A stretch of 64,000 bases of DNA from positions 138,881 to 202,880 of the IMG/VR virus record IMGVR_UViG_3300009185_000001. One strand, 5' to 3'. Every line of letters begins with the position of its first letter. The first letter of the stretch is position 1. The notes beneath the pieces are model-generated. The model did not search any database and was not told the DNA's origin. It worked only from the letters and a program-made list of their open reading frames with translations. Shown here one piece after another: positions 4,697-63,621 of the stretch. The stretch comes from a virus (Duplodnaviria > Caudoviricetes). The translations under genes were made by a program, and so were the position numbers.

Positions 4697-5170
4697 ATGG
4701 ACCCTACTAATGATATAGATAATATTATCGATCAACTTCGTGTTGATGCTGTTCCAACAGTTTCCAATCCCGTAAAAAGAAACGAAATTCAAAATTTAAA
4801 TGATGAAAATGTAAGTGATTATGTTTACAAAAAAACAGCAGAAATCATAGAGGTTGGATTGGAATCCATATCAAATTTAAAAGATATTATAACTTCTGGA
4901 CAAGATCCAAAGGAAATAACAGCACTAGCCAGTTTAATCAGCGCAACAACCAAAGCTATTGATAACCTAAATAAAATCAATTTACAATCTAAACAACATA
5001 AAAACAATTTAGAGGTTGCAAAGATAGAAGGAAATACCGCCAAACAACTTGGAATTGGCAGTCAAACAAATAACATTGTTATTGCAACAAGAGATGAAAT
5101 CTTAAAAATTCAAGACAAAGAGCCTAAAAGACAAAAAATTGAATTGATTGAAGATAACTCTCAAGAATAA
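4697..5170 (+). CDS. gp16: Terminase small subunit, T4 gp16-like
   Basis: Helical core (GQDPKEITALASLISATTKAIDNLNK) and C-terminal TNNIVIATRDEILK resemble the gp16 'TNNLFVGST.EL.K' tail. Confidence 0.6.
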   Translation: MDPTNDIDNIIDQLRVDAVPTVSNPVKRNEIQNLNDENVSDYVYKKTAEIIEVGLESISNLKDIITSGQDPKEITALASLISATTKAIDNLNKINLQSKQHKNNLEVAKIEGNTAKQLGIGSQTNNIVIATRDEILKIQDKEPKRQKIELIEDNSQE

Positions 5171-19824: not shown

Positions 19825-22800
19825 TTATAATAATTTTCTAGCAATTATATAACTACCTGCTAGAGGAACACAGGATATACCACCACCCGCAGTACCTAAA
19901 GCAAATTGCCAATTTAAAGTACCACCAACCGTTCCCGACCTTATATGCATTCTTCTTCTAACAAACCATGTGTTAGCAGTGTTACTACTTGGAGTTGTTA
20001 AATTTGTTGGAGTACTAGTATTATCAGCACCAACTCCTGCATATGTAATAGCAGTAGGAGTTCCGGTAGCAGTGAACCATGCATCATCTATCATAAAATA
20101 GTTAAATTTTAAACTTCCGTCACCAGTAAATTGATATTTAACACCCCCTAATCCTGTAGTTGTTAATATAGCAATAGCAACAACTTCATAATTTGTATTA
20201 GCATCTAAGGACACTCCATTTACTATATTTGCTAAAGTTATAGTTGCATTTGAACCTCCCAATGTGCTTCCTTTTATTAAATTTCCATATCTAGTATCGC
20301 CTAAACCTCCAGTAATTACAGAACTATCACCAAGATATGTTTGATTAGGAGCAGTTACACTTGGACTGTTTACTACTGTTACATTAGAAGCTGTATTATT
20401 ACCGATTGTCGTTGTTACTGCACCAGTACCAGTATTGATGTTGGTTGTACGAGCAGTTGTTGAGTTAATGTCAACCTGACCAGTTGTTGTCAAACCATAT
20501 GTGCTTGCAGCAGCAGTTACTACTCCTGTACTGTTTCCGATAGTTAGAGTATTAGCAGCAGTATTTGCTATTGTAGTATTTCCTGCTATTGTTGTTGTAC
20601 CATTGATTGCAACTGTTCCTGCTGCATTTCCAATAGTAGTTGTTACAGCACCAGTACCCGTATTAATATTGGTCGCTGCTGCCGTTCCATTATTAATATT
20701 GAGTGCTCTTCCTGTAGTTGTATTAATGCCTATAGTACTTGCAGTTGTAATTGTTAAAGTACTTGCTTCTAAATCTGCTGTGCCAGTTTGATTTCCAACC
20801 ACAAGAGTATTTCCTGCGGTATCTGCTATTGTCGTGTTTCCTGCTATTGTTGTTGTTCCGTTTATAGCAACTGTTCCTGCATTTCCAATCGTAGTTGTTA
20901 CAGCACCAGTACCAGTATTAATATTTGTAGTTCTTCCTGTAGTTCCATTTATTGTAAATGTACTTGCAGTTGTAATTGATCCGGTATTTCCATTTAATGT
21001 AAGAGTTCCTGAAGAATTTCCGATACTAACCGTTCCAGTAGTTGTTCCTGTTCCGATATTAGTGTTGGTTGTGGTTCCTGAATCGTTGTTAATTCCAATA
21101 GGAGCACCTTTTGCATTAATTACTGCGGAGTTATTACCAATTCTTACTGTTCCGGTAGATCCATTGATATTTATTTCAGTATCTTTAAATGATGCTGTGG
21201 TATTTCCATCATTTATTTTAACATAACCTGCAACATTTACATTGGTTCCATTGGCATTGGAATTTCCAATATTAACATTTGTTAATGTTGTATTATTTGA
21301 ATTGATGTATGTGCTTCCACTTCCATCATAATTAATTCTAGTATCTCCACCTGCTATAATCGCACCAAATGCAGATCCATAGGCAGACAATGCTGTTGTT
21401 CCATTACTATCACCAAAAATTGCTAGTTTAGCGGTTGGTGTAGCATGATTTATGCCCACATTACCATTTGATAATATGGTAACTTTTTGGGTATTGTTAG
21501 TAACAATATCAAATGGAACAGAATTTTCTGTGCCTATATATGGATTAGAAGCATTTGTACCAAAAGTACCAATTGTAATTTTATTTGTTGTTCCATCATA
21601 TATTCTAACTTGTGGTTGACCATTAGCTTCACTTGCTGTATTAGCTTTAACAATATTAAAGGGAGCAGTAGGCGTATTAACTCCAACACCAACCCAACCA
21701 TTAGTAGCACCATCAACAATTAATGACGCTTTAGAATGAGGAACATCAATGTCTTGATCAAAACATTGTAATATAGGATATGCTCCAGTTTGTATAATTG
21801 TAGTAGCAGCATCAGTTCCTTTGTTGTTTACTACAAGAGAACTAGTTATTTGAACTTTAGTATCAAGATAAGAAAATGTTCCTAGTGCTGAAAGATCTCC
21901 TGTTATAGTTGTGTTTCCATCGATTCTAACATCTCCATTAACATCAAGAACTACTTGTGATGCTTGTTGAGGATAATATGGCTGTGGTACTTTATAAATT
22001 CCTACTCTACTATTGAATACGTTTATTCCACCACCACCAGTAGAAAGAGAAATCATCGGACTATGAAAGGATGCCCCTACATTTCCCCCTTCGGCTTTAA
22101 TACCTGTTAATGCACCATAGGCAGATAATGCAACATTATTAGAATATGCACCAACACCCATTGTATTTCCATATGAATTAACACCCCAATTGGAAGAATA
22201 AGCATCCAATCCAATGTTTTTACCATAAGCACTTAATGCTCTAAATGGGCTATAAAATTCTCCACCGACAAATCCACCGAATGCTGATATGCCTCTTGAG
22301 GACGAATAAACATCTAAACCAATCTGTCCACCATAAGCAGACAATGCTCTTATGGGACTATAAAATTCTCCACCAATTCTTCCGCCAAAAGCAGATATGG
22401 CCCTTGTAGGAGAATAAACATCCAATCCTATTTCTCCACCCCAAGCACTTAATGCTCTTACAGGACTATAAAATTCTCCACTAATAAATCCACCATAAGA
22501 AGATATGCCTCTCGAAGAAGAATACACATCTAAACCAATTTGTCCACCATAAGCAGACAATGCTCTTATGGGACTATAAAATTCTCCAGCGATTCTTCCA
22601 CCAAATGCTGATATTGCTCTTGTAGGAGAATAAACATCCAATCCTATCTGTCCACCCCAAGCAGATATGGCTCTCATAGGGGAAAGGGCTTCTATTGCAA
22701 TTTTAGGAGCATTTGCAGAAATACCAATTGATTTTGTACTGATAACCTCAAGACCTAAATATCCTTCACTATGTATATATGCTCCGCGAGTTCCTGCATA

Positions 22801-47542: not shown

Positions 47543-47619
47543 ATTTTATATATTTATATTAAAAATAACCAAATTCCTCTTATTCTTCATATAAGATATA
47601 AGAAGTATTGGGGAAAGCT

Positions 47620-47745
47620 TTTGAAGATTAAGAAAATTTTTGAAGACTTTTTTATATTAAGAAAACTTTTGAAGATTACGGAGAATTTTGAAGATTAAGA
47701 AAACTTTTGAAGATTAGGGAGAATTTTGAAGACTTTTTTATATTA
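47620..47745. repeat. Degenerate ~19-bp tandem repeats (TTTGAAGAYT core)
   Basis: About 6 copies of ttt(t)gaaga(tt/ct) in non-coding DNA. Confidence 0.6.
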
Positions 47746-48126
47746 CACTCGGTTTTTTTTAAAAATTTTGCAAAAAAAATTTTACCAGAAATTTTTAAAA
47801 ATGTCAAGAATAATCTTCAAAATCTTTAACTCTTTAATATCCAAAATTTTACACAATATTCCCAATACTCCCAAGCCTTCCCAAGTATCCCCCAAGGGGT
47901 ATAGGGGGTATAAGATTCTTAATATTATATCAAATAGGGTATAGTGTTTTTATATCAACCTCTGTTTTAATAGAACATGGTGTAGCATTACAGCAGGATT
48001 TAAAATGACATTAGGTGTTGATGCAGGTTTCTAGCATTTGTAATATTAAGCATATTAGTATAAATTTCCTCTAGGGGGAAAATTACTAATTGATATATAA
48101 TATTAAGAATACTTCCCAATGCTTTT

Positions 48127-48420
48127 TAATATTACCGGAAATTTCTCCTAGGGGGAAAATTGAATATTACTGGAAATTTCTCCTAGGGGATTTTTAATAT
48201 TACTGGAAATAATATTATGAAGAATTTTTAATATTACTGGGAATATTATTATGGGAAATTTTTAATATTACTGGGAATAATATTACGAAGAATTTTTAAT
48301 ATTACTGGAAATTTCTCCTAGGGGGATTTTTAATATTACTGGAAATTTCTTCTAGGGAATTATTGATAATATTAGGAAGGGTATTGGGGGAGGGATGATT
48401 GAGTATTACTGGGAATTTTT
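48127..48420. repeat. ~34-bp tandem repeats, TAATATTACTGG(G)AA core; candidate iterons
   Basis: Unit starts at 48127, 48162, 48195, 48229, 48263, 48297, 48331, 48367, 48401. Confidence 0.75.
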
Positions 48421-48757
48421 GAGGATTTTTGATATTATTTTTATTGGGAAAATTTTTTTTGGTGTGAGTATGATTGTGCATATATTTATGCGTATATGAT
48501 GGGGGAGGGGAGGGGTAGGCAGATTTTGCCTATCAAAAGTTTTTGGAGGTGTCGAAAAATAAAAATTTGACACCTCCAAAACTTTGAAATTTTTGATGCG
48601 GAAATTTTTGCCTATCAAAAGTTTTTGGAGGTGTCGAAAAATAAAAATTTGACACCTCCAAAACTTTCCATGCTGTGGTTGCTCTCCCAAACTTTTTTTC
48701 ATGTTTCCAAAAATAGTTCTTGCTTTTACCAGAAATAAAAACTATTCTATTTGCCTT

Positions 48758-50725
48758 ATGAAATTGCAAACCGCCACAACAACAATCGAACAAATCGGAA
48801 ACATATCACAAGAGGCTCAATTCACGATGAAGACATCGAGAAAAGCCTTTCAGATTCTTTCTGACTTGTATAGTGATAAACCCCTCGCAATCGTTCGTGA
48901 ACTTGGAGCAAATGCCAAGGACGCAATGGTTGCTGCTGGTAAAGGAGATCAACCATTCCATGTTAAACTTCCCAATGCTCTGGAGCCTTGGATTGTTATT
49001 GAAGATATGGGAACTGGTATTTCCCATGAAGACATATACAATGTCTATACGAAATACTTTGAATCTACCAAGTCAGAATCAAATGATTTTGTGGGATGCC
49101 TCGGCTTGGGCAGCAAAAGCCCTTTCTGCTACTCGGATAACTTTTTGATCACTTCTACCCACCAAGGAGTCAAACGCATCTACAATGCCTTTTTCAGCCA
49201 AACTGGAACTCCTGCCATTTCTTTGATGTCCACAGAGAATACAGATCAAGGCAATGGATTGGCAATTCAAATTCCTGTTAAGCTCGCAGATGTTGTCACC
49301 TTCTGCAATGCGGTTGCAAAAGCCTTTCGCTTCTTCAAGATCAAGCCTTCTATTAGTGGTGGGACTATTGATTGGAAGATCAACAAGATTATGTTTGAGG
49401 GTGAAGGATGGGAAGCTCACGAAGGTTTCACCTATGGGGAATGCTATGCAATCATGGGTGGCGTTACCTATCCTGTGGATCGTTACAAACTTTCACATGA
49501 GGCTCAAAACTTTTGTGCCAAGGGTGGAGTTGTCATGTATTTTGAGATCGGAGAATTGGATGTAACTCCTTCCCGCGAATCTCTTTCTTATGACGATGCA
49601 ACAATCAAATCACTTGAAAGCAAATTTGCCTTTATCAAGAAAGATTTTGAGGAAAAGCTGACCAATACTATCGAAGGCAAATCAAACCTTCTGGATGCAC
49701 TTCGTTCACATTGGAATCTTTCTCACACCTTTGCTCATCTTACTACCAATTTTGACAATGTGAAATGGAGGGGCATTGAGCTTTCAAATCCTGCTCAACT
49801 CATTTCAAAAATATCAAAGGGTGATGTTATGACTCATTCCTTTACAAAGTATTCTCGTTCCAAGTATCGGGAATCGGTTTTTGTTTCGATTGATACAAAA
49901 GCCAAGTGGTATGTCGATGACCTTGCAAAAGGAACAACAGCAAGGGTTAAACAACACCTTCGCAGCAACAACGACGATATGCTTTGCGTATTCAGCAAAG
50001 AAACATTCGATACTCTTGTCAATCATAAGGATGTAAACTATCGCTTCGATGCTTCGATGTTCATTCCAACTTCTACCCTGCCCAAGGTTGTCAATACTCC
50101 CAAGGGTGGAACGAGGACTCCCAAGGTTGGTTTCAATGTTTATACCTTTGGAACATCTTGGCACTCCCGATGGGATTCTGAAACCTTCAACCCTGCCAAT
50201 GCTCCCAAATACTATATCGTAAAAGAGGGAAGCACATGGGATATTTCAATCAAAACAAACTTTGGAAAAATCAGCGGAAAGTCTGACTTGCGTTCTTTGC
50301 TTGGATATTTGAATCTCAAGGAATCTGATATTGTCATGGTATCCCCTCAAAACGAAAAGCATCTTGCCCCATTCTCAAAGAATATCAAAGATGCTGCCAA
50401 TGATATTAAAATTGACTTGGATGAAGATACGATTGCAACCGCACAGCATTATGCTAATGATACTTATCAAGATATTAAAAAGCATCCCACATTCAAGAAA
50501 CTGAAACAAGATTCTGATTTTGTGGTGTTTGTGAACAAAGTCTGTGCGGCTCATAATAGTGTGAAGAAATATAAAAACCTTTTGGGAATGTTTACTATGT
50601 CAAAGGGAAAGCCAGCAGTCCTTGATTCCCAATGCCCTATCACAAATCTTGTGTCAAAGCGTATGGGAAGATATGGATGGGAAGCAGAAGACATTCTAAC
50701 CATCCTCGAAAATTTCCAAAAATAA
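48758..50725 (+). CDS. rIIA: rIIA-like protein (HSP90/GHKL ATPase domain); true start likely 48758
   Basis: AFQILSDLYSDKPLAIVRELGANAKDA, DMGTGIS, YFESTK, GCLGLGSKSPFCYSD. Confidence 0.9.
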   Translation: MKLQTATTTIEQIGNISQEAQFTMKTSRKAFQILSDLYSDKPLAIVRELGANAKDAMVAAGKGDQPFHVKLPNALEPWIVIEDMGTGISHEDIYNVYTKYFESTKSESNDFVGCLGLGSKSPFCYSDNFLITSTHQGVKRIYNAFFSQTGTPAISLMSTENTDQGNGLAIQIPVKLADVVTFCNAVAKAFRFFKIKPSISGGTIDWKINKIMFEGEGWEAHEGFTYGECYAIMGGVTYPVDRYKLSHEAQNFCAKGGVVMYFEIGELDVTPSRESLSYDDATIKSLESKFAFIKKDFEEKLTNTIEGKSNLLDALRSHWNLSHTFAHLTTNFDNVKWRGIELSNPAQLISKISKGDVMTHSFTKYSRSKYRESVFVSIDTKAKWYVDDLAKGTTARVKQHLRSNNDDMLCVFSKETFDTLVNHKDVNYRFDASMFIPTSTLPKVVNTPKGGTRTPKVGFNVYTFGTSWHSRWDSETFNPANAPKYYIVKEGSTWDISIKTNFGKISGKSDLRSLLGYLNLKESDIVMVSPQNEKHLAPFSKNIKDAANDIKIDLDEDTIATAQHYANDTYQDIKKHPTFKKLKQDSDFVVFVNKVCAAHNSVKKYKNLLGMFTMSKGKPAVLDSQCPITNLVSKRMGRYGWEAEDILTILENFQK

Positions 50726-50767
50726 ATCTTGCAATTACCAGAAATAATCTCTACTATTATCAGCCTT

Positions 50768-51814
50768 ATGAACACTACAAACAATGCAGTCACAATCACA
50801 GGAACAGGAAAAATCGCAGCGGTCGTCAATGGCAGACCATACTCGATTGCTTCTGATCATCCAAACTACAATCAAATCATTGGGGCTATCAAATCCCAAG
50901 ACTGGACTTCGTTCGTAACTCTTGCCGATGTTACAAGCCAAGTGAAACAATACACGACAACCGATGGAGTTGAGATCGTGGATGGAGCAGTCATCTATAA
51001 GGGTGAAGCAATTCACAATACTCTCACCAATCGAATCGTGAAGTTCATGGGTGAAGGTCTGCCCTTCCAACCCCTCGTAAGGTTCTTGGAAAATCTGATG
51101 AACAATCCAAGCAAGCGAGCAGTGGATGAACTCTACACATTCTTGGAAGTCGGGGAACTTCCAATCACAGAGGATGGATGCTTTCTGGCATACAAGAATG
51201 TTCGTGCGGATTACATGGACATTCATTCGGGAACATTCAGCAACAAGATTGGTGATGTTTGCGAAATGCCTCGCAATCGGGTTTGCGATGATAGCGAACG
51301 CACTTGCTCTGCGGGTCTTCACTTCTGTTCAATCGCATACCTTCCCCACTTCTCCGATAGTGATGGAGGACATACAATGATTGTGAAGATCAATCCTGCG
51401 GATGTTGTTTCAATTCCAAAGGATTACAACAATACTAAAGGTCGGGCTTGCAAGTATGAAGTCATTGCAGAATACACCGAGGATTGGCGTTCCAAGCTCA
51501 ACAAAGGTGAAAGCGGATGGGATGCAGGTCTTTACACTTCTGATGGTGAAGACTATGAGCTTGATGAACTCGATGAGCTTGACGAAAATGAAAACGAAAA
51601 CGATTGCACCTACTCTCATCCAGATTGCGATGATTACCATTGCTTCTGCGAGGACAAGGATTATGGTTACAAACCCAATGGTCACAAGTTCCACAATGTT
51701 CGTGGAGCCGATGGAAAGTTTGTAAAGAAAGAAGAAGAAGGTTTAGGTAAGGTGGTTGGTGGATTGGTGAAGGCATTCAGCGATGCTCTCAACAAAGCAG
51801 GATATATTCACTAA
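50768..51814 (+). CDS. rIIB: rIIB-like protein; true start likely 50768
   Basis: FLENLMNNPSKRAVDELYTFL, LPITEDGCFLAYK, MPRNRV.DD, CSAGLHFCS, VKINPADVVSIPKDY. Confidence 0.92.
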   Translation: MNTTNNAVTITGTGKIAAVVNGRPYSIASDHPNYNQIIGAIKSQDWTSFVTLADVTSQVKQYTTTDGVEIVDGAVIYKGEAIHNTLTNRIVKFMGEGLPFQPLVRFLENLMNNPSKRAVDELYTFLEVGELPITEDGCFLAYKNVRADYMDIHSGTFSNKIGDVCEMPRNRVCDDSERTCSAGLHFCSIAYLPHFSDSDGGHTMIVKINPADVVSIPKDYNNTKGRACKYEVIAEYTEDWRSKLNKGESGWDAGLYTSDGEDYELDELDELDENENENDCTYSHPDCDDYHCFCEDKDYGYKPNGHKFHNVRGADGKFVKKEEEGLGKVVGGLVKAFSDALNKAGYIH

Positions 51815-51830
51815 TCGTTTCATAGGGAAA

Positions 51831-51864
51831 AATCCCCACTCTCAAAAGGAGTGGGGATTTTTTT
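51831..51864 (+). terminator. Intrinsic terminator
   Basis: AATCCCCACTC/GAGTGGGGATT plus T7. Confidence 0.85.
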
Positions 51865-52045
51865 GTGCCTTGAAAAGTTTACCATTTCAAAAAACCCTTC
51901 CCGTAAAACTTTTTTGGAGGTGTCGAAAAATAAAAATTTGACACCTCCAAAACTTTCCGCACTGGATGAGTGCTGCGGTTGCGTTTTTCAAACCATCGAA
52001 AAAAGTTCTTGACCTTACCAGAAATTTCTGAGAGAATTATTGTCT

Positions 52046-52600
52046 ATGAAATCTTATATGCAACAAATCAGCGACTTTGGTAGAGTAGTATCAGAGTATG
52101 ATGAGAATAAGCATATCCTTTCAAAAACAAAATCAATAAACGAAAAGGTAGATGCTCTGTGCAAAGCCATTGAGTATCTTAAACAAAGAGAAGAAGAAGA
52201 ATACGAAGAAGACGAAGAAGACGAAGAAGACGAAGAAGACGAAGAAGAAACACCATCAATAACATCAAGAATAATCAAATCTATGAAAATGCCTGTAATA
52301 ATAGTAGTAGCCGCACATCTGGCAGTGATCGGAGGAATAATGATTACTTCATCAAATTCCGCAAAAGCCAAGCAAATTTCTTCTGATAAAAAAGCATTGG
52401 AAGAATCATATAGTTATGCGAGTGTCGAAGACAAAGGAGAAAACGATTGGCCTAAACCAAAATTCCATGTAGTAACTTCCAAGGATACTTTTTATGGATT
52501 GGTAAAAAAGTATAAAGTCGATGCCAATAAATTCAAAGAAATAAACAAAATCAAAGACATCAATGTTCTGATTGATGGTAAAAAGCTAATCATACCATGA
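52046..52600 (+). CDS. Membrane-anchored protein with acidic tract and C-terminal LysM domain
   Basis: (EED)n tract, TM helix PVIIVVAAHLAVIGGIMI, HVVTSKDTFYGLVKKY...NKIKDINVLIDGKKLIIP. Confidence 0.75.
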   Translation: MKSYMQQISDFGRVVSEYDENKHILSKTKSINEKVDALCKAIEYLKQREEEEYEEDEEDEEDEEDEEETPSITSRIIKSMKMPVIIVVAAHLAVIGGIMITSSNSAKAKQISSDKKALEESYSYASVEDKGENDWPKPKFHVVTSKDTFYGLVKKYKVDANKFKEINKIKDINVLIDGKKLIIP

Positions 52601-52840
52601 CACTCCAAGAAGTTCGCCAACGCAAGAAAGAGAGTAAGAAGACTTTAAGACATTTCTGGACAGCAGTATGCTTGGGAAATATTATATTACTCACAATGCT
52701 TGCGATTATTTCCTATAATCTTTGAAAAATAGTTCTTGACTTTACCAGAAATTTCTGGAATAATATCGCCTCAATCAAACCACAACGAGCAAAGGAACGG
52801 ATGTTCTATCTTGCAAACTATCAACCCTAAAACAAATCAA

Positions 52841-53143
52841 ATGAAATATAAAACCTTCCCATTCACCATCACTATTGACGATGGTTTCAACGAACCTAAA
52901 AATTTCAAAATGGAATTTGATGGTAGTGTTAGTATGCTCGATCTCATCAAAACCTTGGAAGAAAAATTCCAAGCTAAACCATCCATCGAGGAACTTCTTT
53001 CAGAAGCTATGGAACTGGCGAGCAAATCAATCACGCTTGCGGAGGATTATAGTGAATCCGAAAAGGTGAAATGCCTCGCAAAGAAGTTTGAAGAACTGGA
53101 ATGCAAAGTATGGGATATGGAAGAATCTATCTCCCAAAAATAG
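52841..53143 (+). CDS. Hypothetical protein (likely start MKYKTF)
   Basis: ORF downstream of the promoter at 52736. Confidence 0.5.
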   Translation: MKYKTFPFTITIDDGFNEPKNFKMEFDGSVSMLDLIKTLEEKFQAKPSIEELLSEAMELASKSITLAEDYSESEKVKCLAKKFEELECKVWDMEESISQK

Positions 53144-53180
53144 TAAAATCAACCAACAAAAAAAACAAACCAAAAACCAA

Positions 53181-53645
53181 ATGAAAACTAATATGTCATT
53201 CACAGGAGATTTAGGACACAATCCTAAAATCATTGAAAAGTATAATCGAATTGCAAAAAGATTCGATGTAACCGAACTTCCAATCCTTTTAGAATCTTGG
53301 ATGGACGAAACCGATATGCACGATTTCGCAACTCATCTGGAAAATAGATACTATGCTAATTTCAATGAGTATGTGATCGAATACAACATTCGTTCTCTCT
53401 GTGGAACGAAAGCATATTCAGCAGTCATCATCGACAAGAAAGAGTTTGGATCAGATTTCGAGGATATGGTTTCTTACCACATAGCCCATGAGGTGAAAGA
53501 AGATGGTTCTGTATATTATCTGGAACACGACTTGGAAGGAAGACGAGCAGATAAAGGGAATCAAAATGTTTTATATGATCGTGCATGGGTTCGATCACCC
53601 AAGGAAGGAAAAGAATTTCTTCGATACCTTGAGGCAAATCTTTAA
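53181..53645 (+). CDS. Hypothetical protein (likely start MKTNMS)
   Basis: A/C-rich leader precedes the ATG. Confidence 0.5.
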   Translation: MKTNMSFTGDLGHNPKIIEKYNRIAKRFDVTELPILLESWMDETDMHDFATHLENRYYANFNEYVIEYNIRSLCGTKAYSAVIIDKKEFGSDFEDMVSYHIAHEVKEDGSVYYLEHDLEGRRADKGNQNVLYDRAWVRSPKEGKEFLRYLEANL

Positions 53646-53748
53646 AATAATTCTTGACATATTTTCAAGAATAAAAGAATATATCGACTTCATTGATGGT
53701 AAAACATCATATATAACCAAAACAAAAACCAAATAGAAAGAAAAGCAA

Positions 53749-54225
53749 ATGCCAAACCATTGCAACAACCAACTCACACTCGCAAGCGGAGAAGACCTTT
53801 TGAGTGTATTGAATCCCTACATAACATTAAAGGGAGATGACATTATCGGATGCCAAGAATACCACTTCGATTTCAACAAGATCATTCCAGAACCAAAACC
53901 AGAAGTAGAAGACTGGTATGGATGGAGAGTAGAAAATTGGGGAACGAAATGGGAAGGATATGAGGGTCGATTCAATCAGGATCAATCCGAATTCTCATTT
54001 TGCACAGCATGGAGTCCTCCACTTCCAATCATAAAGAAACTCGCAGAAATTACTGGACAGACTTTTGTTCTTGGGTATATTGAAGAAGGAATGTTCTTCT
54101 GTGGAAAATATACAGCAGGACGAGAATTTGACCATGATGAGTATTACGATGACATCAAAGCAGCACCACAGGAACTTCAAGATGAACTCGGATATGAGGA
54201 ATGGGAAGAAGTAGAAACAGAATAA
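53749..54225 (+). CDS. DUF1281/YubB ferredoxin-like family protein
   Basis: MPNHC.N.L, FDFNKIIPEP, WYGWRVENWGTKW, F.TAWSPP. Confidence 0.75.
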   Translation: MPNHCNNQLTLASGEDLLSVLNPYITLKGDDIIGCQEYHFDFNKIIPEPKPEVEDWYGWRVENWGTKWEGYEGRFNQDQSEFSFCTAWSPPLPIIKKLAEITGQTFVLGYIEEGMFFCGKYTAGREFDHDEYYDDIKAAPQELQDELGYEEWEEVETE

Positions 54226-54260
54226 CCAACCAACCAACCAACCAACCAAACAAACAATAC

Positions 54261-55661
54261 TATGAAATTCACAAGAACAGAATATGTAAGGCGTTATCCA
54301 GAAATGAACAAGATGCGGAAGAATGATCCAATACAATTCAGCGTTTTATTCAATGAGTGGGTTAGAAAAAATAAAAAATAAAAACAACCAACCAATAAAA
54401 ACCAAATGAGAAAAATATATGTAGATGTAAAAGTTCGATTGATTATGAACCTTGAAGAAGGAGTATCGGTCGATGATGCAATCAGCGAAATGGATTATGT
54501 TTTTAATCTTGAAAATGAACATGGAGAGATGGTGGATACAGAGATAATGGATTACAATGTGGAGGATTCAAAATGAAAACAATTACATTGACAGAAGCGC
54601 ATCGAATCCTTGAAGATGCAAGTGCCATAATCATTGACAATGATGTTGTGCTGTATCCATCATTGTCAGAATTGAAAGAAGACGATACAAACGAGTTCAT
54701 GTATCTATCATGGGGTTATGAAGGAGAAGGTTATAGTCTCAGATTTGAAGAGTGGAGAAACCAAGAAGTAGAAGTTGTAGGTTCTTCAATGTTTCTTTAT
54801 GCAAAAGGAGACAGTGACCATACCCAAATTACAATCCTAATAACAAAAGAATTAGAATAATATGAACATCAACAAACTCATCAAACGACTCGAAAAGATT
54901 AAAGACTTGGGAGTCAAAGAAGTAAGTGTAATCGACTGCAACTGGAACGACTGGGACATTGAAACAATCGAACCAGATACAAGCGGAGGATTCGCAATGA
55001 TTCAAATCTCACAATCAGAATCATTCGGACAAGATGAAGAGGATAGTGAAATCTATCCAGAAGAAATTGAAGATTAAAAATATGAAAATACTAACAGACA
55101 ACCGATACATTGGAACCCTCGAACGAAAAATTGCAGTAACCCTAAACCAAAATCTAATTCCCGATGAAGAAGGAAAATACCTTTCTATGGCAAAATCTAT
55201 GGATGCTTTGACAGAAGAAATTTCTCGATCCGTCCGCAGGTTTCAGAATGAAAGTATTCCAGAGAGTATCTGATGAAGGTTAAACCTCAACTATATCAAA
55301 CTGCTGTGTCAAATCAACTTAAAAAGAAAATGACAATAGTCATGGAAGGCGGACTCATTCAAGATATTGTAAAGGAAAATATCTCAGATGTTCTAATAGA
55401 AGTCCACGACTATGATGTTGATGGTATTGATCCCTCAACGCTTAAAAAAGATAACAACAACAAACAATTCCACAAAACAACCTTAGATTGATATGTCAAG
55501 CAAAGAAGCCAAAATTATTGCATTCGCCCTTCAACATCTTCTGATTGATTGGAACGATAACATTGAAAACCAACTCGATGATATTGCAATCGACAAGGAC
55601 ATTGAATACCTCCAAAAGAAATACGAAGGCAAAAGCCAAACATACATAGCACACGAACTCT
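54261..55661 (+). CDS. Run of seven tightly packed small ORFs (54261, 54406, 54573, 54862, 55082, 55273, 55493)
   Basis: Abutting or overlapping starts and stops; acidic small proteins with no recognised family. Confidence 0.5.
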
Positions 55662-56635
55662 AATAGTGTTTTTATAGAACAGCGTGTCAGAATGTAACAT
55701 AGTGTTACATTGCAACAAAAAATCAAACACTTTATTTTTTTTCACACGCACATACGTAACGCATACGTGAGAGGACTTGACAAATTTTTTTCCAGAGGTA
55801 TGTATATTAAGAATACTTCTTAAATTATGAATTCTTCAGAATATATTAAGAATATATAATTATATATTAGTAAATTAACAATTCTTTATAATATTAACAA
55901 TATATAAAATATATAATAATATTAAGAAAATATAATAATACTAAGAATAGGCAAGATGGAAAGTAATTTAGGAAAAGAATTTGATTTGACCTTTGACGGA
56001 ATATTAGATAGGTGGGTAGTCATTGGAATCTTTGAAGAGAATAATGACTATCAATACATCATTCAAAACAAAAAGGAAGATTGTAAAATTATTAACAAAG
56101 AAGAAATAGAATAAACCACATACAAAAAATAAATAGGGATTTCCCCAAGAGATTAAAAACTCTTGGGGTTTTTTTATGCGTATGGAATGGTTTTTTATAT
56201 TTATACGCATAAATTTAGGTAGGCAAAATTTGCCCACTCCTGCAAGTTTTTGGAGGTATTAAAAAATAAAAATTTGACACCTCCAAAAACCTCAAAGCCC
56301 ATTGACGGAAAATTTTCAAGTTTTGGAGGTGTCAAAAAATAAAAATTTGACACCTCCAAAACTTTCCAGTTCGGCGTTTAAAAATAAAAATTATTCTTGC
56401 TTTTATCAGAAAAAAATTATAGTCTTCTCAACCTTATGAAAAATCTATTCTCATTCCTATTCCCTGCAAAGAAACCTTCATTGCTTGCCTTGAGCATTGC
56501 CACCTTCACGAATGAAAGCCACCTTTCCCAAATTTTCCGACAAGGGAGAATATGGGAATACTCTATAAAATAATTTTCCCGATTGGAAAAATAATTCTTG
56601 CTATTACCAGAAATATCTGAGAAACTATCTGCCTT

Positions 56636-57313
56636 ATGAAGCTACTATCCACCACAAACACGAAAATCAAAAAGGGCGAAAAATTCGGATGGACTACCTT
56701 CGGGCTTTCCCTCGCTCCTGCAAACCTTTCAGGCAAACAGCTTTGCCCTCATCGCAGCAAAGGCTGTGAATTGGCTTGTCTCAACACCGCTGGCATGGGT
56801 GTCTTTTCAAATGTTCAAGAGGCTCGTATCGCCAAATCAAAATATCTGATTGAGGAAAAAAATTCTTTTGTTGCTCAACTGAAAAAAGAATTGATTGCTG
56901 CCGAAAAGAAATCCAAGAAACTTGGCATGAAAATTGCGGTTCGTTTGAATGTCCTTTCCGATCTTCCGTGGTATAACATGATTGAGATGTCTGAATATCC
57001 TAACATCCAATTTTATGATTATACTCCAAATGTTTCACGCATGATTCAATTCTTGCGTGGGGAATTGCCAGAAAATTATCACCTCACTTTTTCCCGTAAA
57101 GAAAATAATCAAAGCAAAGTCGAATTGATTGCTTCTATGGGGGGAAACATTGCTGCCGTATTTGATACGCTTCCTGATACCTATCTTGGAAAGAAAGTTA
57201 TTGATGGGGATGAAACCGATCTCCGCTTCATGGATGATAAGAATGTCATTGTCGGATTGAAAGCAAAAGGAAAAGGAAAGAAAGATACTTCGGGCTTCGT
57301 GATTAAAGCCTAA
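56636..57313 (+). CDS. GP88-like phage protein
   Basis: LSLAPA...LCP.RS.GC..ACL..AG.G, VRLNVLSDLPW, FYDYT, NYHLTFS, DGDETDLRF. Confidence 0.7.
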   Translation: MKLLSTTNTKIKKGEKFGWTTFGLSLAPANLSGKQLCPHRSKGCELACLNTAGMGVFSNVQEARIAKSKYLIEEKNSFVAQLKKELIAAEKKSKKLGMKIAVRLNVLSDLPWYNMIEMSEYPNIQFYDYTPNVSRMIQFLRGELPENYHLTFSRKENNQSKVELIASMGGNIAAVFDTLPDTYLGKKVIDGDETDLRFMDDKNVIVGLKAKGKGKKDTSGFVIKA

Positions 57314-57330
57314 AAACTTTCCTCCATAAA

Positions 57331-57365
57331 AACTCCACACTCTGAAAGGGGTGTGGAGTTTTTTT
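57331..57365 (+). terminator. Intrinsic terminator
   Basis: AACTCCACAC/GTGTGGAGTT plus T-run. Confidence 0.85.
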
Positions 57366-57735
57366 ATATCTTGGCACGATCCTTGCTTGTAAGCAAAATC
57401 TGTGCCAACTATAAAATCTCCTCCCCCGTGAAACTTTTTTTGGAGGTGTCAAAAAATAAAAATTTGACACCTCCAAAAAACCCCTATCGCTGGGGTGTTC
57501 ACCTGCCTATTACTTTTTGAAAATTGGTTATGTTTTCCTCCTATGAAAACTCGAATCACTCTGCATCTTCGTTGTATGATCAATAATCCTAAGAATTGGA
57601 AATTCTATGCCAAGGGAATCCTTCGTGAATTCCATGAAGTCTTTCTCACCTTCATGGATTGCTTCTGAAACTATTTTTCCAATTAGAAAAAAAGTTCTTG
57701 ACTTTACCAGAAATATCTGAGAAACTTTCTGCCTT

Positions 57736-58146
57736 ATGAAACTTAAATTCCAATACACCGATGGAGGACGCTCACTCGCTGGCTACTCAGGAAAGACTGG
57801 GGATTGCGTAGTTCGTGCGCTTGCACTTGCCACAGGCTCATCATATATGAATATGTATCAGTTCGTCAATGCAACCTCAAAGGCATTTGAATCTCATCGC
57901 AGAGTCAAATCCAATAATGTTCATGGAGTATATGAAGCATCCGTTCGCGGAATTATGAGGGTCATGAAATTCAAGTGGACGGCAAAGAAAGTCGGAGCTA
58001 TGCTAAAAATTCCAACAAAGGGAAGTTATATCGTTTCCATCCAAGGTCATGTTTGCGCTGTCGTCAATGGAATTATCTTGGACACTCACAATTCCCTCAC
58101 CCCCGACAATCTTCGTTACTCCTACGGATACTGGAAAGTAAAGTAA
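57736..58146 (+). CDS. Conserved phage hypothetical protein, leaderless
   Basis: GDCVVRALA.A.G..Y, YIVSIQGHV.AV.NG...DT. Confidence 0.6.
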   Translation: MKLKFQYTDGGRSLAGYSGKTGDCVVRALALATGSSYMNMYQFVNATSKAFESHRRVKSNNVHGVYEASVRGIMRVMKFKWTAKKVGAMLKIPTKGSYIVSIQGHVCAVVNGIILDTHNSLTPDNLRYSYGYWKVK

Positions 58147-58153
58147 AAATCTT

Positions 58154-58387
58154 ATGAACACACTAACAGACAAAACAAAACCTTGGGGAAAAATAACCTT
58201 TATCCATCACAAGACAGGCAAAGAACATTCTTTCTATTCATGCGTAAATAAACTATCAAATAGCCGCTTGTCTGCATTTGATAATGAAGCTCCTTCTATC
58301 GGAGACAACATGGCATGGGTAAAAAGCGTTTTTAGAAAAATCAATGGAAAGTGCAAAGTTTTATCATTTGAGGGAAACATAAAATAA
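58154..58387 (+). CDS. Hypothetical protein
   Basis: 77-aa ORF. Confidence 0.5.
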   Translation: MNTLTDKTKPWGKITFIHHKTGKEHSFYSCVNKLSNSRLSAFDNEAPSIGDNMAWVKSVFRKINGKCKVLSFEGNIK

Positions 58388-58560
58388 AAACATTAACCAC
58401 ACTCCTCGCTACTATCACAGATACTAATATGAAATACCTAAACGACTCTCTAACCTTTGCAATCTTTATGGCTGTGTTCTTCTATTCCATGATGGGACTT
58501 ATCCTTGCTCTTGGAAAGTTTGTAGAGACTCACGGACTATAAGCAAACATCGTTCCTCAG

Positions 58561-58596
58561 AATCCCATCACTCGAAAGGGTGGTGGGATTTTTTTT
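58561..58596 (+). terminator. Intrinsic terminator (identical copy at 60851-60887)
   Basis: AATCCCATCAC..GTGGTGGGATT plus T-run. Confidence 0.85.
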
Positions 58597-58834
58597 GTTC
58601 AACAATATTCAAGTTCAACCTTTTTTTGGAGGTGTTAAAAACTAAAAAATTGACACCTCCAAAAACCCTCGCCCCTGCCCTCGTTGGCGTGTCGCCAAAA
58701 CTTGGCACAGGATATGCTTCTGAAATTATTTTCCCGATTCTAAAAATAATTCTTGCTATTACCAGAAATTCCAATTACTATTTTAAACATGATGAACAAT
58801 TCATCATACCTAACAACAAACCAAATATAATACT

Positions 58835-59869
58835 ATGGCATCAGGAATCACACTCGTAGATCGCATTTACTCCGTCGAAGGCACAGAATGGCACAGAATG
58901 GCTATTCCAAAAGCAAAAATCCTTCGGGAAGAAATCAAAGACATTCTTTGGCCTATCATTCAATCTCCTGCAATGATCCAAGTGGATGGCAACAATATCG
59001 AACTCCCAAACTATAAAGTCCTCTGTGCAGACATGCGTGGACTTCGGGATGACTTGGAAACCGAAATCGTTCCTCTCCATATTCCAAAGTCGGGTTATCA
59101 AGTCATTGACAATCCCCAAGTATGGGAAGTCATGGAGAAGGCACTGAAAGACTTGGATGCTACTATCACAAGCGTCGGAACTTTGGAGGGTGGTAAAAAG
59201 TTTTTTATCTCCTGCGTCATTGGTGACTCAGAAATGGTCATCAATAAAGATAAATTCAAGTTTTATATCAACTTCGTCACTTCCCATGATGGGACTATCA
59301 CGATGTTTGTTTATGACTCTTCCATGCGGATTGTCTGCATGAATACTCTTCGCTGGTCAATGCAAAAGGCAGGAGAAATGGGTTTCCGAATCATGCACAC
59401 TAAGAATGCTTCTCTGGCATTGGAGAATCTTCCTCAACTTGTGAATGCAATTCTCACAGGTCGTTCGGACTTGAAACAAGTCATGGAATACCTCTATAAC
59501 CACAAGTGCGATAAGAATGATGCGCTTGCGATGGCAGCAGGATACTTTGTGGAAACTACTGGAAACAAAGAACTCACCACAAGGTCATGGAAAGCAGCAG
59601 AGCAAATCGGAGGACTCTTTTATTGCGGAATCGAGTGCAATGGGGAGACTCTTTATGACTTGGCAAACGCCGCTACCGAATACTGGACAACAGGACTCGG
59701 AACAGGAATGAAAGGAACCTCACAAAGCGCAAGGCTTTACAAGTCTGCAATGGGTGGAGCAGCAGAACATAAAGAGCAGTTTATCGGAATGCTCTCGGAT
59801 GAGACTCAGCGGACGATCATGCTGGATAAGGGTCGTTCAGCAGTCAAGACTGCCCTTGCGAACGCATAA
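58835..59869 (+). CDS. DUF932 family phage/plasmid protein
   Basis: WH.M, YQVIDN.Q, SVGTLEGGKKFF, TSHDGT, RIVCMNTL, RIMHTKNA. Confidence 0.8.
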   Translation: MASGITLVDRIYSVEGTEWHRMAIPKAKILREEIKDILWPIIQSPAMIQVDGNNIELPNYKVLCADMRGLRDDLETEIVPLHIPKSGYQVIDNPQVWEVMEKALKDLDATITSVGTLEGGKKFFISCVIGDSEMVINKDKFKFYINFVTSHDGTITMFVYDSSMRIVCMNTLRWSMQKAGEMGFRIMHTKNASLALENLPQLVNAILTGRSDLKQVMEYLYNHKCDKNDALAMAAGYFVETTGNKELTTRSWKAAEQIGGLFYCGIECNGETLYDLANAATEYWTTGLGTGMKGTSQSARLYKSAMGGAAEHKEQFIGMLSDETQRTIMLDKGRSAVKTALANA

Positions 59870-59889
59870 GGGAATAACCTCATAAGAAG

Positions 59890-59920
59890 ACCCCACTCTC
59901 AAAAGAGGGTGGGGTTTTTT
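59890..59920 (+). terminator. Intrinsic terminator
   Basis: ACCCCAC/GTGGGGT stem plus T-run. Confidence 0.85.
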
Positions 59921-60125
59921 TATCAATGCGTGTTGAAATGTAACATGGTGTCGCATTACAGCAAGAATTCTACCCATGCGTTTTAAGTCATAGAAAAAAC
60001 TGCGGATATGTATCATTTATATCATTTGAATTTTTTCTTGTAAAAAGTTATTGCAATTACCAGAAATTATTGCTATACTATTTGCTCAATAAAATTCCAT
60101 ACTCAACCAACCAAAAATCCCTAAC

Positions 60126-60311
60126 ATGAAAGAAAACACCGCACTCATCCTCACCGATAAAAAGACCAATAACATTGCTCATATTATCGTCTGCAAAGAT
60201 GAAGAAGAAATAAGCAAATACATAATGAAGGACGATCCCAAGATCAACTATCAAATCGTCCCAAACTGGAATATCGTTTGCAAAGCAGTTGAAAAGTTTC
60301 AAATCAAATAA
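60126..60311 (+). CDS. Small hypothetical protein
   Basis: Downstream of the promoter at 60051. Confidence 0.5.
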   Translation: MKENTALILTDKKTNNIAHIIVCKDEEEISKYIMKDDPKINYQIVPNWNIVCKAVEKFQIK

Positions 60312-60662
60312 TAACCCCAAACCAATAACACCATTGCTATGAAATACTATCCTTAAAAATTTTAATCAATAGTCAAAAACTAAACAAACACCCCATAGGC
60401 AGATTTTGCCTATGGGGTTTTTTATGCGTATAAAAGTTAAGATAGGCAAAAATTGCCCATAGGCAAAAATTGCCTACCTCGGCGGAATTCCTGAAGTTTT
60501 TGGAGGTGTTAAAAACTAAAAAATTGACACCTCCAAAACCTTTGCCCCCTGCCCTCGTTGGCGTGTCGCCAAAATTTGGCATGGTTTGTGCTTCAAATTA
60601 TTTTACCGATTAGAAAAATAGTTCTTGCAATTACCAGAAATAAATTATACTCTATCTGCCTT

Positions 60663-60836
60663 ATGAAATCAAAAGTCATCACCTACGCAGAGTTTGAGAG
60701 AATTGCTGAAAAATTCCCCAAATGCCCCAAGGCAGAATTTCAAGCCTCCATCGAAGAATACTTCGTGGTTGAGTGGGAGGATGGGAAAAATTATCCCTCG
60801 CGCTTGGTTCACTATTTCAAGCCAATATTCGGTTGA
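60663..60836 (+). CDS. 57-aa protein, leaderless single-gene unit
   Basis: Promoter -10 TACTCT 9 nt before ATG; terminator follows. Confidence 0.6.
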   Translation: MKSKVITYAEFERIAEKFPKCPKAEFQASIEEYFVVEWEDGKNYPSRLVHYFKPIFG

Positions 60837-61105
60837 TTAAAAAATCAATCAATCCCATCACTCGAAAGGGTGGTGGGATTTTTTTTTGTCCAAAAATATC
60901 CGAGGGGACAGGGAGAGTTTTGGAGGTGTTAAAAACTAAAAAATTGACACCTCCAAAACCTCCGTCCCCTCCGCTCGTGCGTGAACTGCGGTTAGAATTA
61001 TTTTTCGGAATTCAAAAATAATTCTTGCTATTACCAGAAATAAATGCGATACTTCTTGGCGTGATGAATGAATCATCACAAAACCAAAATCAAAAATAGC
61101 CAAAT

Positions 61106-61645
61106 ATGAACATCAAAATCAGCGCAATCGACAGCCTCCGCGAGGCCACTAAAAGGGGATGCAAGTTTATGACATTCCTCTACACCAGCAAGGGAACAGG
61201 AGAAACCTCCAAGTATCAGATCAACTTCGGTATCAGCAACAAGTCCGCTTGCGAACATGACCGAGAAGCACTTCTTGCCTATGTCCCTCAATCAGAGCTT
61301 GAGGAAACCGCTAAAGCGGAATTGCTCAAGTCCCTCACCGAGACAATCGAAGAGGGTGTCAGCAAGTCCTACACGCAAGCCGATACATATGACTACATCG
61401 GCAAGGGCATCCGTCAGCATAAAGAGACTGGGGAAATCTACATTGACGGCTTCATTCAGTCCAAGGAACAGGTTGAGCCTCCGACCAATCCAAAGAAACC
61501 AGTCAACAGCCGACCCCTCACGCTTGCCAAGAATGCAATCAAAGAGACTTGCAACTTCAAGCGTAACAAGTTCGGCAGCTTCATTCTCAACCCCTCCAAT
61601 ATCGGCGGCATCGTTGTCTGTGGGGATGTCGTAGAGATTCACTAA
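61106..61645 (+). CDS. Hypothetical protein; untagged paralog of 43731-44429
   Basis: Shared F.Y.SK..G...KY....G and FIL.P.NI.GI blocks. Confidence 0.7.
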   Translation: MNIKISAIDSLREATKRGCKFMTFLYTSKGTGETSKYQINFGISNKSACEHDREALLAYVPQSELEETAKAELLKSLTETIEEGVSKSYTQADTYDYIGKGIRQHKETGEIYIDGFIQSKEQVEPPTNPKKPVNSRPLTLAKNAIKETCNFKRNKFGSFILNPSNIGGIVVCGDVVEIH

Positions 61646-61661
61646 AGCACAACGCTCAACC

Positions 61662-61693
61662 AACCCCACTCTTGAAAGAGGGTGGGGTTTTTT
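61662..61693 (+). terminator. Intrinsic terminator
   Basis: AACCCCAC/GTGGGGTT plus T-run. Confidence 0.85.
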
Positions 61694-61999
61694 GTTGCAC
61701 TTAATTAACTATTTAATTAACTATTTAATTAACTATTAACTATCACTTAATTAACACTTAATTAAGGTAGGCAAAAATTGCCTACCTCGGCGGAACTGCG
61801 GAAGTTTTTGGAGGTGTTAAAAACTAAAAAATTGACACCTCCAAAAACCTTTGCCCCCTGCGCGGGTGCGCGAACCTTGGCATGGTTTGTGTTTCAAACT
61901 ATTTTCCCGATTAGAAAAATAGTTCTTGCAATTACCAGAAATATGAATTACTATTTTAACCATGATGAACAACAATCATCATATCTAACAATAACCACT

Positions 62000-62266
62000 A
62001 TGCTAATGCAAACACCAAAGGTAGGGGATCTTGTCCTCTACAGATTCCAAGGAACACGAACTGACATTCCATTCCGAGTCACGCAGGTCGATGAGGCTAA
62101 GGGAACTATCGTGGCTTATGACGAGGCCACAGGGGGTTACGGCTCCGAAACTCATGGGTTCGATATGTGCGAGAAGGGATTGACCAACTTCCCCACGGAC
62201 AAGGCATCTCAAGACCTTGTCTGGAAGAAACTTCGGGCTTACGCGAAACGCGCAGGAGCGATTTAA
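62000..62266 (+). CDS. Small SH3/KOW-like hypothetical protein (likely start 62000)
   Basis: TPKVGDLVLY...FRVTQVD...GTI. Confidence 0.5.
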   Translation: MLMQTPKVGDLVLYRFQGTRTDIPFRVTQVDEAKGTIVAYDEATGGYGSETHGFDMCEKGLTNFPTDKASQDLVWKKLRAYAKRAGAI

Positions 62267-62281
62267 CTCCTCGACCCCACC

Positions 62282-62315
62282 AAACCCTATCCTCGAAAGA
62301 GGGTAGGGTTTTTTT
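62282..62315 (+). terminator. Intrinsic terminator (identical copy at 63121-63153)
   Basis: AACCCTATC/GGTAGGGTT plus T-run. Confidence 0.85.
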
Positions 62316-62553
62316 GTATCTTGGCACGATCCTTGCTTGTAAGCAAAATCTGTGCCAACTATAAAATCTCCTCCCCCGTGAAACTTTTTTTGGAGGTGTC
62401 AAAAAATAAAAATTTGACACCTCCAAAAACTTCCGCCCCCTGCCCTCGTTGGCGTGTCGCCAAAACTTGGCACAGGATATGCTTCAAATTATTTTTCGGA
62501 ATTCAAAAATAATTCTTGCTATTACCAGAAATAAATGCGATACTATTTGTCCT

Positions 62554-63096
62554 ATGGTAAAAAATCCACCAGTCAGTATCGTCCTAACAAATAACGGCGA
62601 TCTCATCGCCACCAACGAAATCAAAGAGGGGGAAGTCCTAAAGCTAACAATTACGGAATACCCTGTCATTCGCGTTCCAGAAAAATTCCTATACGATCAT
62701 ATGATAGGTAGAGAATGTCCTTCTCCATTCATCGTGAGAGAAACCAAACAGCACTATTTCATTGCCGCTATCGACTGTGATGGCTGGAGGGATTTAGTGA
62801 GTGATGCAGAGTTCTACACTGATCCCTATGGCCCTGACGCTGAATACCTCCACGGCATCAAGAAGTCTGCAAAGGCTACTCTGAAGGCAATGAGTGCAGT
62901 TACTCCGGTGACGCTTGAGCGAACCTACAAGATCGAGATGTTCGCCCATCACATCCCTGCGTGGGGATGGTTTGAGTTTGCCTTGGACAAGATTACTCCT
63001 CTTGTTCCGTTCCTTACCAGAAAATCAGCGAGAGAGTATATCAAGGATCGAAGCCTCGAAGGAAACGGCTTCGACTTCCGAGTAGTACCTTGCTGA
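62554..63096 (+). CDS. Hypothetical protein, leaderless (start 62554)
   Basis: -10 GATACT 9 nt before ATG. Confidence 0.55.
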   Translation: MVKNPPVSIVLTNNGDLIATNEIKEGEVLKLTITEYPVIRVPEKFLYDHMIGRECPSPFIVRETKQHYFIAAIDCDGWRDLVSDAEFYTDPYGPDAEYLHGIKKSAKATLKAMSAVTPVTLERTYKIEMFAHHIPAWGWFEFALDKITPLVPFLTRKSAREYIKDRSLEGNGFDFRVVPC

Positions 63097-63621
63097 TAGC
63101 CGTCCGGTCTCGACCCCACCAAACCCTATCCTCGAAAGAGGGTAGGGTTTTTTTGTAGCAGTCTGCAATAACGTAACACTCTGCTACACCATCACACTTA
63201 ATTAACTATTAACTATAATTTAATTGAGACTTAATTAACTATTAACTATAATTTAATTGAGACTTAATTAAATACTCCCTCCGGTTTTTGGAGGTGTTGA
63301 AAAATAAAAGTTTGACACCTCCAAAAACTCGTTTCTTTACAAAACTGATTTGATATAAAATGCGGTAATGAAACAAACATAGTATTAACCGAGGGTGGCT
63401 GTTAAAAAATCTTAATAGACAATTTAAAAGGGATGGGGGTAGGGGAGGCAATGCCCCTCCCCTACCCCCTATATAATCCTCCCAATCTTCCCAATATAAA
63501 CAAGGTTCCTGCTAATCCTCTTAATATCAACAATTTTTGTATAATATTCGTAATATCCTTAATATTAATAATATAATAAAAAATCCCCCTGCGAAGCCTT
63601 TATTTAAGAGGGGTTCTTACT

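Follow-up and report, generated by a model that had tools for sequence, protein, structure and literature searches.

Which protein reads the promoter-like boxes that stand, singly and as facing pairs, in the spacers between the small genes of a large T4-like phage from a lake, and what could it do there? The boxes lie near the end of IMG/VR record IMGVR_UViG_3300009185_000001, a genome of 202,880 bp with 123-bp terminal repeats, and the stretch analysed here, called the window, is the last 64 kb of that record (positions are those of the window unless another record is named). An earlier note on this DNA had taken the boxes for sites of sigma-54 (RpoN). Every site that it quoted was found in place, the match to the sigma-54-type consensus goes far beyond chance at the sequence level, and its head-to-head units proved to be members of a widespread phage class whose free positions are sigma-54-like as well. 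Among bacterial sigma factors, sigma-54 alone forms a stable complex with DNA that does not fire, an ATP-driven activator being needed for transcription. Our leading, still tentative answer, which is drawn from sequence, is that the boxes would be sigma-54-type sites with host RpoN as the probable reader, and that the pairs would act as docking sites.

Sigma-54-type boxes in the cassette region

The whole genome was scanned by counting matches to the consensus TGGCAC-N5-TTGCW with mismatches allowed, the core GG-N10-GC being required. There are only four perfect matches genome-wide, and all of them are arms of two facing pairs, which form 38-bp units at 57371-57408 and 62321-62358. One-mismatch matches number five, of which two are in the cassette region. 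In 40 genomes simulated with a first-order Markov model no perfect match arose, and for the 15.65-kb cassette region the Markov expectation is 0.02 perfect and 0.25 one-mismatch boxes, against 4 and 2 observed. Outside the cassettes no perfect box exists and one-mismatch boxes are near background (3, with about 2 expected genome-wide), while two-mismatch boxes are somewhat over expectation (21, with about 13 expected genome-wide). The boxes are real and not a product of chance.

Among the boxes of the window (Table 1), GG-N10-GC within the longer consensus is kept in the four perfect boxes, the two with one mismatch and the one with two mismatches. It fails at 61877, a sixth plus-strand copy that the earlier note had missed. 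The extended consensus is followed too, since all window boxes have T before TGGCAC, G or A after it, and T after the GC. In both pairs the centre between TTGC and GCAA is 6 nt, and the N5 spacers of the two arms are complementary at 0 of 5 positions. The earlier note had described an opposite-strand copy beginning 3 nt after each plus-strand 17-mer; the copy is there, and the gap measures 4 nt.

The copies are not independent, because the cassette modules have been duplicated. Pairs 1 and 2 are held by a 134-nt repeat (57346-57479 and 62296-62429, 96% identity), and the independent variants are two perfect arms, one box with one mismatch, one with two mismatches and one broken box.

Table 1. 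Boxes and neighbouring cassette features in the window (range: positions 57,366 to 62,553)
Feature	Position	Strand	Remarks
Pair 1, left arm, perfect box	57371-57387	+	predicted start near 57398 if firing
Pair 1, right arm, perfect box	57392-57408	-	predicted start near 57381, into preceding terminator
Pair 2, left arm, perfect box	62321-62337	+	identical to pair 1; within 134-nt repeat; predicted start 62348
Pair 2, right arm, perfect box	62342-62358	-	predicted start 62331
Single box, one mismatch (ATGC for TTGC)	58702-58718	+	predicted start near 58729
Single box, copy of the 58702 box in duplicated spacer module	62467-62483	+	one mismatch; predicted start 62494
Single box, two mismatches (TGGCAT, GTGC)	60576-60592	+	predicted start 60603
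Decayed sister copy of the 60576 box	61877-61893	+	GT replaces invariant GC
Intrinsic terminator (A-run, hairpin, T-run) of preceding cassette	57328-57370	+	directly before pair 1
Twin terminator	62282-62318		precedes pair 2
41-bp inverted repeat	57438-57478	+	one of 12 co-oriented copies, 48541-63326
41-bp inverted repeat, other copies in range	58624, 60498, 60918, 61806, 62388		
Cassette promoter, sigma-70 type	58753-58781	+	-35 TTGCWA, conserved spacer TTACCAGAAAT, -10 TAnnnT
Cassette promoter, other copies in range	57698, 60051, 60625, 61025, 61926, 62516		13 copies in all, 48720-62544
Perfect 15-bp palindrome TTGGCG-TGT-CGCCAA	58684-58698; 60558-60572; 62449-62463		3 nt upstream of single boxes

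The facing pair as a phage-wide class

A search of IMG/VR with the full palindrome recovered an unrelated phage with the same unit, likewise placed right after a T-run. We then defined a strict pair pattern (TGGCAC-N5-TTGC, a centre of 2-12 nt, GCAA-N5-GTGCCA), which is present in at least 120 IMG/VR stretches. With the 4-nt centre alone it is found in 76 stretches, and scaling from this count gives an estimate of roughly 250-330 IMG/VR contigs. In order to compare, the pattern was also read backwards, which keeps its composition and its palindromic form, and this control is found in 1 IMG/VR stretch. The 161 sampled loci fall into 60 DNA-similarity groups with G+C contents from 28% to 68%, and the flanks of the pairs carry phage genes (terminase, portal, capsid, protease, sheath, primase).

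In 596 Gb of bacterial genomes the strict pattern occurs 53 times, where about 6 would be expected by chance at equal base frequencies. More than half of the bacterial matches (30 of 55) are true hairpins whose N5 segments are complementary at 4 or 5 of 5 positions, often with a pyrimidine after TGGCAC; they include matches from Actinomycetota and from a cyanobacterium, groups in which rpoN is almost absent (PMC12316311). For the phage pairs, the complementarity between the N5 segments of the two arms averages 1.57 of 5, versus 1.82 of 5 for shuffled partners. The lack of complementarity in the phage spacers indicates selection on the duplex sequence and not on a fold. The pair centre is 3-7 nt across the class and is rare beyond that range, and this variation argues against a rigid dimer and for two boxes that are read separately.

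The positions left free by the search pattern were counted in 246 half-sites: a pyrimidine precedes TGGCAC in 75%, a purine follows it in all 246, and A or T follows TTGC in 84%. For 29 intergenic sites of Salmonella supported by chromatin immunoprecipitation, our count from PMC3844500 gives the purine in 29 of 29 and A or T in 27 of 29.

Some carriers are richer in boxes than the phage studied here. For example, a 44-kb genome (G002) has ten perfect boxes within 500 bp (20238-20731), and another carrier (G003) has arrays at both contig ends (16-204 and 61534-61675). Within arrays the boxes are spaced 3-7 nt head to head and 6-10 nt tail to tail. About 7 of 41 loci on whole contigs have a pair within 300 nt of a contig end, a weak excess that assembly breaks may explain. 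With crude calling of open reading frames (ORFs), 73 of 113 pairs overlap no ORF of at least 100 aa, and a looser ORF set gives no clear result. Two other carrier genomes have several perfect single boxes 11-180 nt before ORFs, so promoter use is plausible in some phages.

The T-run or terminator adjacency of the two window pairs was considered as a feature of the class and ruled out. It applies to 4% of the pairs, which is below the background of 8.5%, so this placement is particular to the phage studied here and a few others.

The pair is a large and apparently undescribed phage-specific class. We found no description of inverted box pairs or arrays in the literature on sigma-54 in phages, podoviruses, decoys and roadblocks. 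The inverted perfect pair is about a hundredfold commoner in viral contigs than its matched control and nearly absent from bacteria, which points to a phage-specific engagement of sigma-54, be it as a conditional promoter, a dock or a sink. If this reading holds, the pair would be a new marker for phage regulatory regions, and it would also hint at host range, because the host must have rpoN.

Host sigma-54 as the candidate reader

An AAA+ activator encoded by the phage, for which the earlier note had suggested a search, is not borne out. The profile search of the genome found neither an activator nor a sigma-54 gene, with no match to Sigma54_activat (PF00158) or to Sigma54_DBD. None was found in the other carrier records searched (five per family, six between both, four of them at least 90% complete). 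Among the 109 ORFs that flank the pairs in 60 groups, no gene family turns up repeatedly (at most two ORFs share one), and five carrier genomes have no protein family in common at BLASTP sensitivity. Because neither a phage sigma-54 nor an activator, a shared protein or a recurrent neighbour was found, host sigma-54 appears to be the most likely reader.

In order to place the host, we summarized the use of Shine-Dalgarno signals. They precede 9% of 141 long ORFs in this phage, versus a background of 7%, and the upstream regions are A-rich. By the same measure a T4-like cyanophage reaches 30%, Alteromonas phage V22 57% and Bacteroidota phage phi14:2 7%. As this phage has no Shine-Dalgarno signal, like phi14:2, the host is likely a member of Bacteroidota. 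The three Bacteroidota genomes tested all contain the Sigma54_DBD domain (rpoN), and sigma-54 regulons occur in Flavobacteriia (PMC12316311). Among the carrier phages the use of Shine-Dalgarno signals ranges from 9% to 78%. The carriers thus differ in translation signals and would infect several host groups, as fits a conserved host factor.

Possible functions of pairs and single boxes

The reader would be host sigma-54, alone or inside RNA polymerase. The two 38-bp units would constitute a phage-specific element, recognised in duplex form and not as a folded hairpin. Standing at the entry to two early cassettes, they may dock sigma-54 as a closed complex that does not transcribe. The predicted starts in Table 1 follow the rule that a sigma-54 transcript begins 12 nt after the GC. 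Any firing of pair 1 would need a host activator, and its two starts would then be 17 bp apart and diverging. When the centre measures 3-7 nt, and only then, the start predicted for an arm lies within its partner's N5 spacer, and opening one box must then disrupt the other; we record this as a coincidence and not as evidence. For the pairs, a docking site is favoured over a conventional promoter on the present sequence data, and the functions that remain may be docking or a sink, or a conditional two-way promoter. The single boxes at 58702, 60576 and 62467 may add a conditional sigma-54 promoter in tandem with the sigma-70-like one, and the dual sigma-54/sigma-70 control raised by the earlier note is possible for them.

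Several observations weigh against this reading. The genome lacks an activator gene, and upstream of the boxes no activator site can be recognised. In each pair the minus arm is directed into a symmetric terminator, and if the pairs were ordinary promoters, bacteria should carry them, yet they do not. Arrayed boxes are too close together for a full polymerase on each. The single boxes overlap a sigma-70-like reading, and one copy (61877) has lost the invariant GC. Moreover, relatives that share the cassette promoter have no boxes over 82 kb, so the boxes are dispensable and a recent addition in this lineage.

The idea that RpoN serves as a roadblock, also put forward by the earlier note, was given up, as polymerase bound with sigma-54 gave no roadblock effect in Escherichia coli (PMC4591121) and terminator adjacency is not class-wide. 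A sink has been considered more broadly: face-to-face boxes, often in arrays, might trap scarce host sigma-54 without transcription in many unrelated phages. In that case replicating phage DNA would silence sigma-54-dependent host responses or free core polymerase, and the two units of this T4-like phage would be a small instance. We regard such general trapping as rather unlikely; sequestration as such, which the earlier note had also raised, is still a live candidate.

Alternative explanations

For the single boxes, the alternative with the best standing is a second sigma-70-like promoter in tandem with the main one, in which TTGGCA would be the -35 element with TATTTT 17 nt downstream, and the TGC at the right distance would be a coincidence passed on by duplication. 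We consider it a serious possibility that is nevertheless on the unlikely side. A consensus scan finds TTGGCA and TATTTT at 17 nt for the boxes at 60576, 61877 and 62467, the 58702 box pairs with AATTAT at 16 nt, and TTGGCA differs at one position from the sigma-70 -35 consensus. The copy at 61877 retains both TTGGCA and TATTTT, its GC being lost. The two variants of the single box share the segment that holds the TGC, so the TGC counts as one event and not as two. However, TATTTT is part of an A+T-rich stretch that is present in every cassette, even in those without TTGGCA; TTGGCAY is common to the single boxes and to the perfect pairs a few hundred bases off; and the variants ATGC and GTGC are found in proven sigma-54 promoters. 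A sigma-70 promoter also leaves the pairs unexplained. The two readings of the single boxes are not mutually exclusive, and overlapping sigma-54 and sigma-70 sites are known to compete (PMC4591121).

Another sequence-specific DNA-binding protein, of phage or host, might read TGGCAC-N5-TTGC, in which case the likeness to sigma-54 would be convergence. Inverted pairs and dense arrays are typical of operators, iterons and packaging sites, and the box spacing is too tight for a full polymerase everywhere. In two lineages, furthermore, terminase genes follow closely on the arrays, which occupy gene-free blocks flanked by divergent promoters. We think such a protein improbable, though worth keeping in mind, given that no family recurs beside the pairs and no protein is common to the five carrier genomes, that a 4-bp variation of the centre ill suits a fixed dimer, and that the free positions follow the sigma-54 consensus too. 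The breadth of the carriers, in G+C content and in translation signals alike, also speaks against it.

An action by structure, whether as a 3'-end RNA hairpin or as a DNA cruciform that promotes cassette recombination, is very unlikely. Both strands of the 38-bp units do fold well (-15.7 and -17.6 kcal/mol, z about -5), the units lie at cassette borders inside the 134-nt repeat, and PeSL-type cassettes are known to recombine (PMC2839356). Across phages, however, the stem sequences do not vary and the inner N5 is unpaired, which is the opposite of a selected fold, and the bacterial hairpin versions often break the purine rule with T or C after TGGCAC. No T-run follows the unit, and its stem would contain a 5x5 internal mismatch. 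A scan of 47-64 kb against Rfam returned only sub-threshold hairpin look-alikes, none at the gathering score.

That the boxes have no function and are a chance match multiplied by cassette duplication is the least credible account. In its favour, the independent variants number just four or five, the boxes are missing from relatives and one copy has decayed already. Against it, one unit holds two different perfect arms where about 0.02 are expected, and hundreds of unrelated phage contigs share the architecture, whereas the control yields 1.

Comparison with known systems

Phage use of sigma-54 is almost undocumented, and we found one published phage, Pseudomonas phage YuA (AM749441; cited in PMC10914365), for which use of host sigma-54 promoters was claimed from a promoter-trap assay. 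Three promoters are annotated "-24/-12" in its record and located in the late structural region. The annotated sites fit the consensus poorly, our scan of YuA finding no box with fewer than 2 mismatches and no pair. YuA was dropped as a model, since its annotated -24/-12 promoters hold no good box. A sigma-54-type regulator is said to be carried by phage phi1422 (PMC3391216).

Another phage with such boxes is the cultured Alteromonas phage V22 (MN877442), whose host genus is gammaproteobacterial. Its non-coding DNA carries one perfect box and three with one mismatch, and its largest gene-free block (69888-70263) contains three of the four. Its facing boxes are 30 nt apart, compared with 3-7 in the pair class. 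The word "promoter" is absent from the main text of the V22 paper.

The phage boxes have the GG-N10-GC core and the extended consensus in common with bacterial RpoN promoters such as glnAp2, pspA and hycA/hypA, while the phage is without an activator gene or a recognisable upstream activator site of its own. In bacteria, activator sites lie between divergent sigma-54 promoters. The consensus is given as TGGCAC-N5-7-TTGCT (PMC12316311), and the variants ATGC and GTGC of the phage single boxes are present in the hycA and glmZ promoters (PMC3844500 Table 3). Divergent sigma-54 promoters of bacteria (hycA/hypA and zraP/hydH, from the coordinates in PMC3844500) are arranged back to back with about 110-170 bp between them, whereas the phage boxes stand face to face at 3-7 bp, an arrangement that is nearly absent from the 596 Gb of bacterial genomes. 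Inactive or intragenic sigma-54 sites of E. coli and Salmonella (PMC4591121, PMC3844500) resemble the proposed docks in that they hold polymerase with high affinity without firing, and decoy roles have been discussed for them. They are single sites within host genes, in contrast to the inverted pairs and arrays in viral non-coding DNA.

The setting of the boxes recalls the PeSL cassettes of T4-type phages (Arbiol et al. 2010, PMC2839356). Shared with these are small accessory genes, each set between a strong sigma-70-like promoter and a stem-loop terminator, and repeated modules that lend themselves to shuffling. The mosaic spacer modules and the 134-nt repeat of the window are indirect signs that its cassettes may have recombined. 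We likewise find 13 promoter cores, a terminator after each unit and a T4-type genome. The definition in the abstract of that paper includes neither sigma-54-type boxes nor a 41-bp inverted repeat, both of which are present here.

Organization of the cassette region

The phage is T4-like, with genes for a gp23-type capsid protein, portal, prohead protease and baseplate wedge, and with rIIA/rIIB at 48701-51814. Its capsid protein shares only about 35% identity with the cyanophage counterparts, and a DNA similarity search against isolate phages with the cassette region and two array loci gave no match. The cassette region opens, shortly before rIIA, with 19-bp and 34-bp tandem-repeat arrays (47608-47760 and 48120-48420); they are iteron-like and could mark an origin or a binding array for a regulator.

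Between about 47.7 and 63.3 kb, small transcription units follow one another on the plus strand. Each has the order of intrinsic terminator, 41-bp inverted repeat, G+C-rich spacer with a small palindrome, A+T-rich stretch, sigma-70-like promoter and nearly leaderless ATG. Each pair abuts the T-run of the previous unit's terminator, 30 nt upstream of the inverted repeat. The single boxes lie 37 nt past the inverted repeat, 3 nt past the 15-bp palindrome and 34 nt before the cassette -35. Single boxes and plus arms are upstream of genes and directed with them, and the minus arms face the terminator of the previous cassette.

The earlier note had proposed the 41-bp inverted repeat as the enhancer. 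This does not agree with its distribution, as it is found in all 12 cassettes, lies downstream of the pairs, and is replaced by another repeat in relatives. It is present in 12 of 12 units whether they have boxes or not and nowhere else in the genome, and it is peculiar to this phage; a relative (L017:3900-3945, 4700-4745) has a different inverted repeat of similar shape at the corresponding place in its cassettes. Its centre is about 84 nt upstream of the predicted start of a single box, within enhancer range, and nothing ties it to the boxes in particular. The repeat is a general cassette part and not a dedicated enhancer. Its arms read GGAGGTG (a Shine-Dalgarno sequence) and CACCTCC (the anti-sequence); the phage itself makes no use of Shine-Dalgarno signals.

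A 41-codon ORF at 57543-57668 follows the inverted repeat and precedes the next cassette promoter; no other cassette has a 200-nt spacer like the one here. This ORF is without a sigma-70-like cassette promoter of its own, and the plus arm of pair 1 would be the closest start signal ahead of it.

Other small elements recur in the cassettes. At the spot of the 15-bp palindrome, other cassettes have different small G+C-rich palindromes, which suggests a conserved position for a hairpin or an operator. A short hairpin (ATGATGAA, loop, TTCATCAT) is placed exactly at the predicted transcript start in three cassettes (58789-58807, 61058-61078 and 61960-61980), and an A/C-rich leader comes next. Palindromes of the form TAGGCA-N5-TGCCTA recur in cassette borders (60443-60476, 61768-61784 and 48495-48530), and one also serves as a terminator stem at 60390-60418. 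Finally, AT-only 11-bp repeats built on TTAATTAAC are located at 61700-61765 and 63190-63272, and similar ones exist in a relative (L017:4600-4690).

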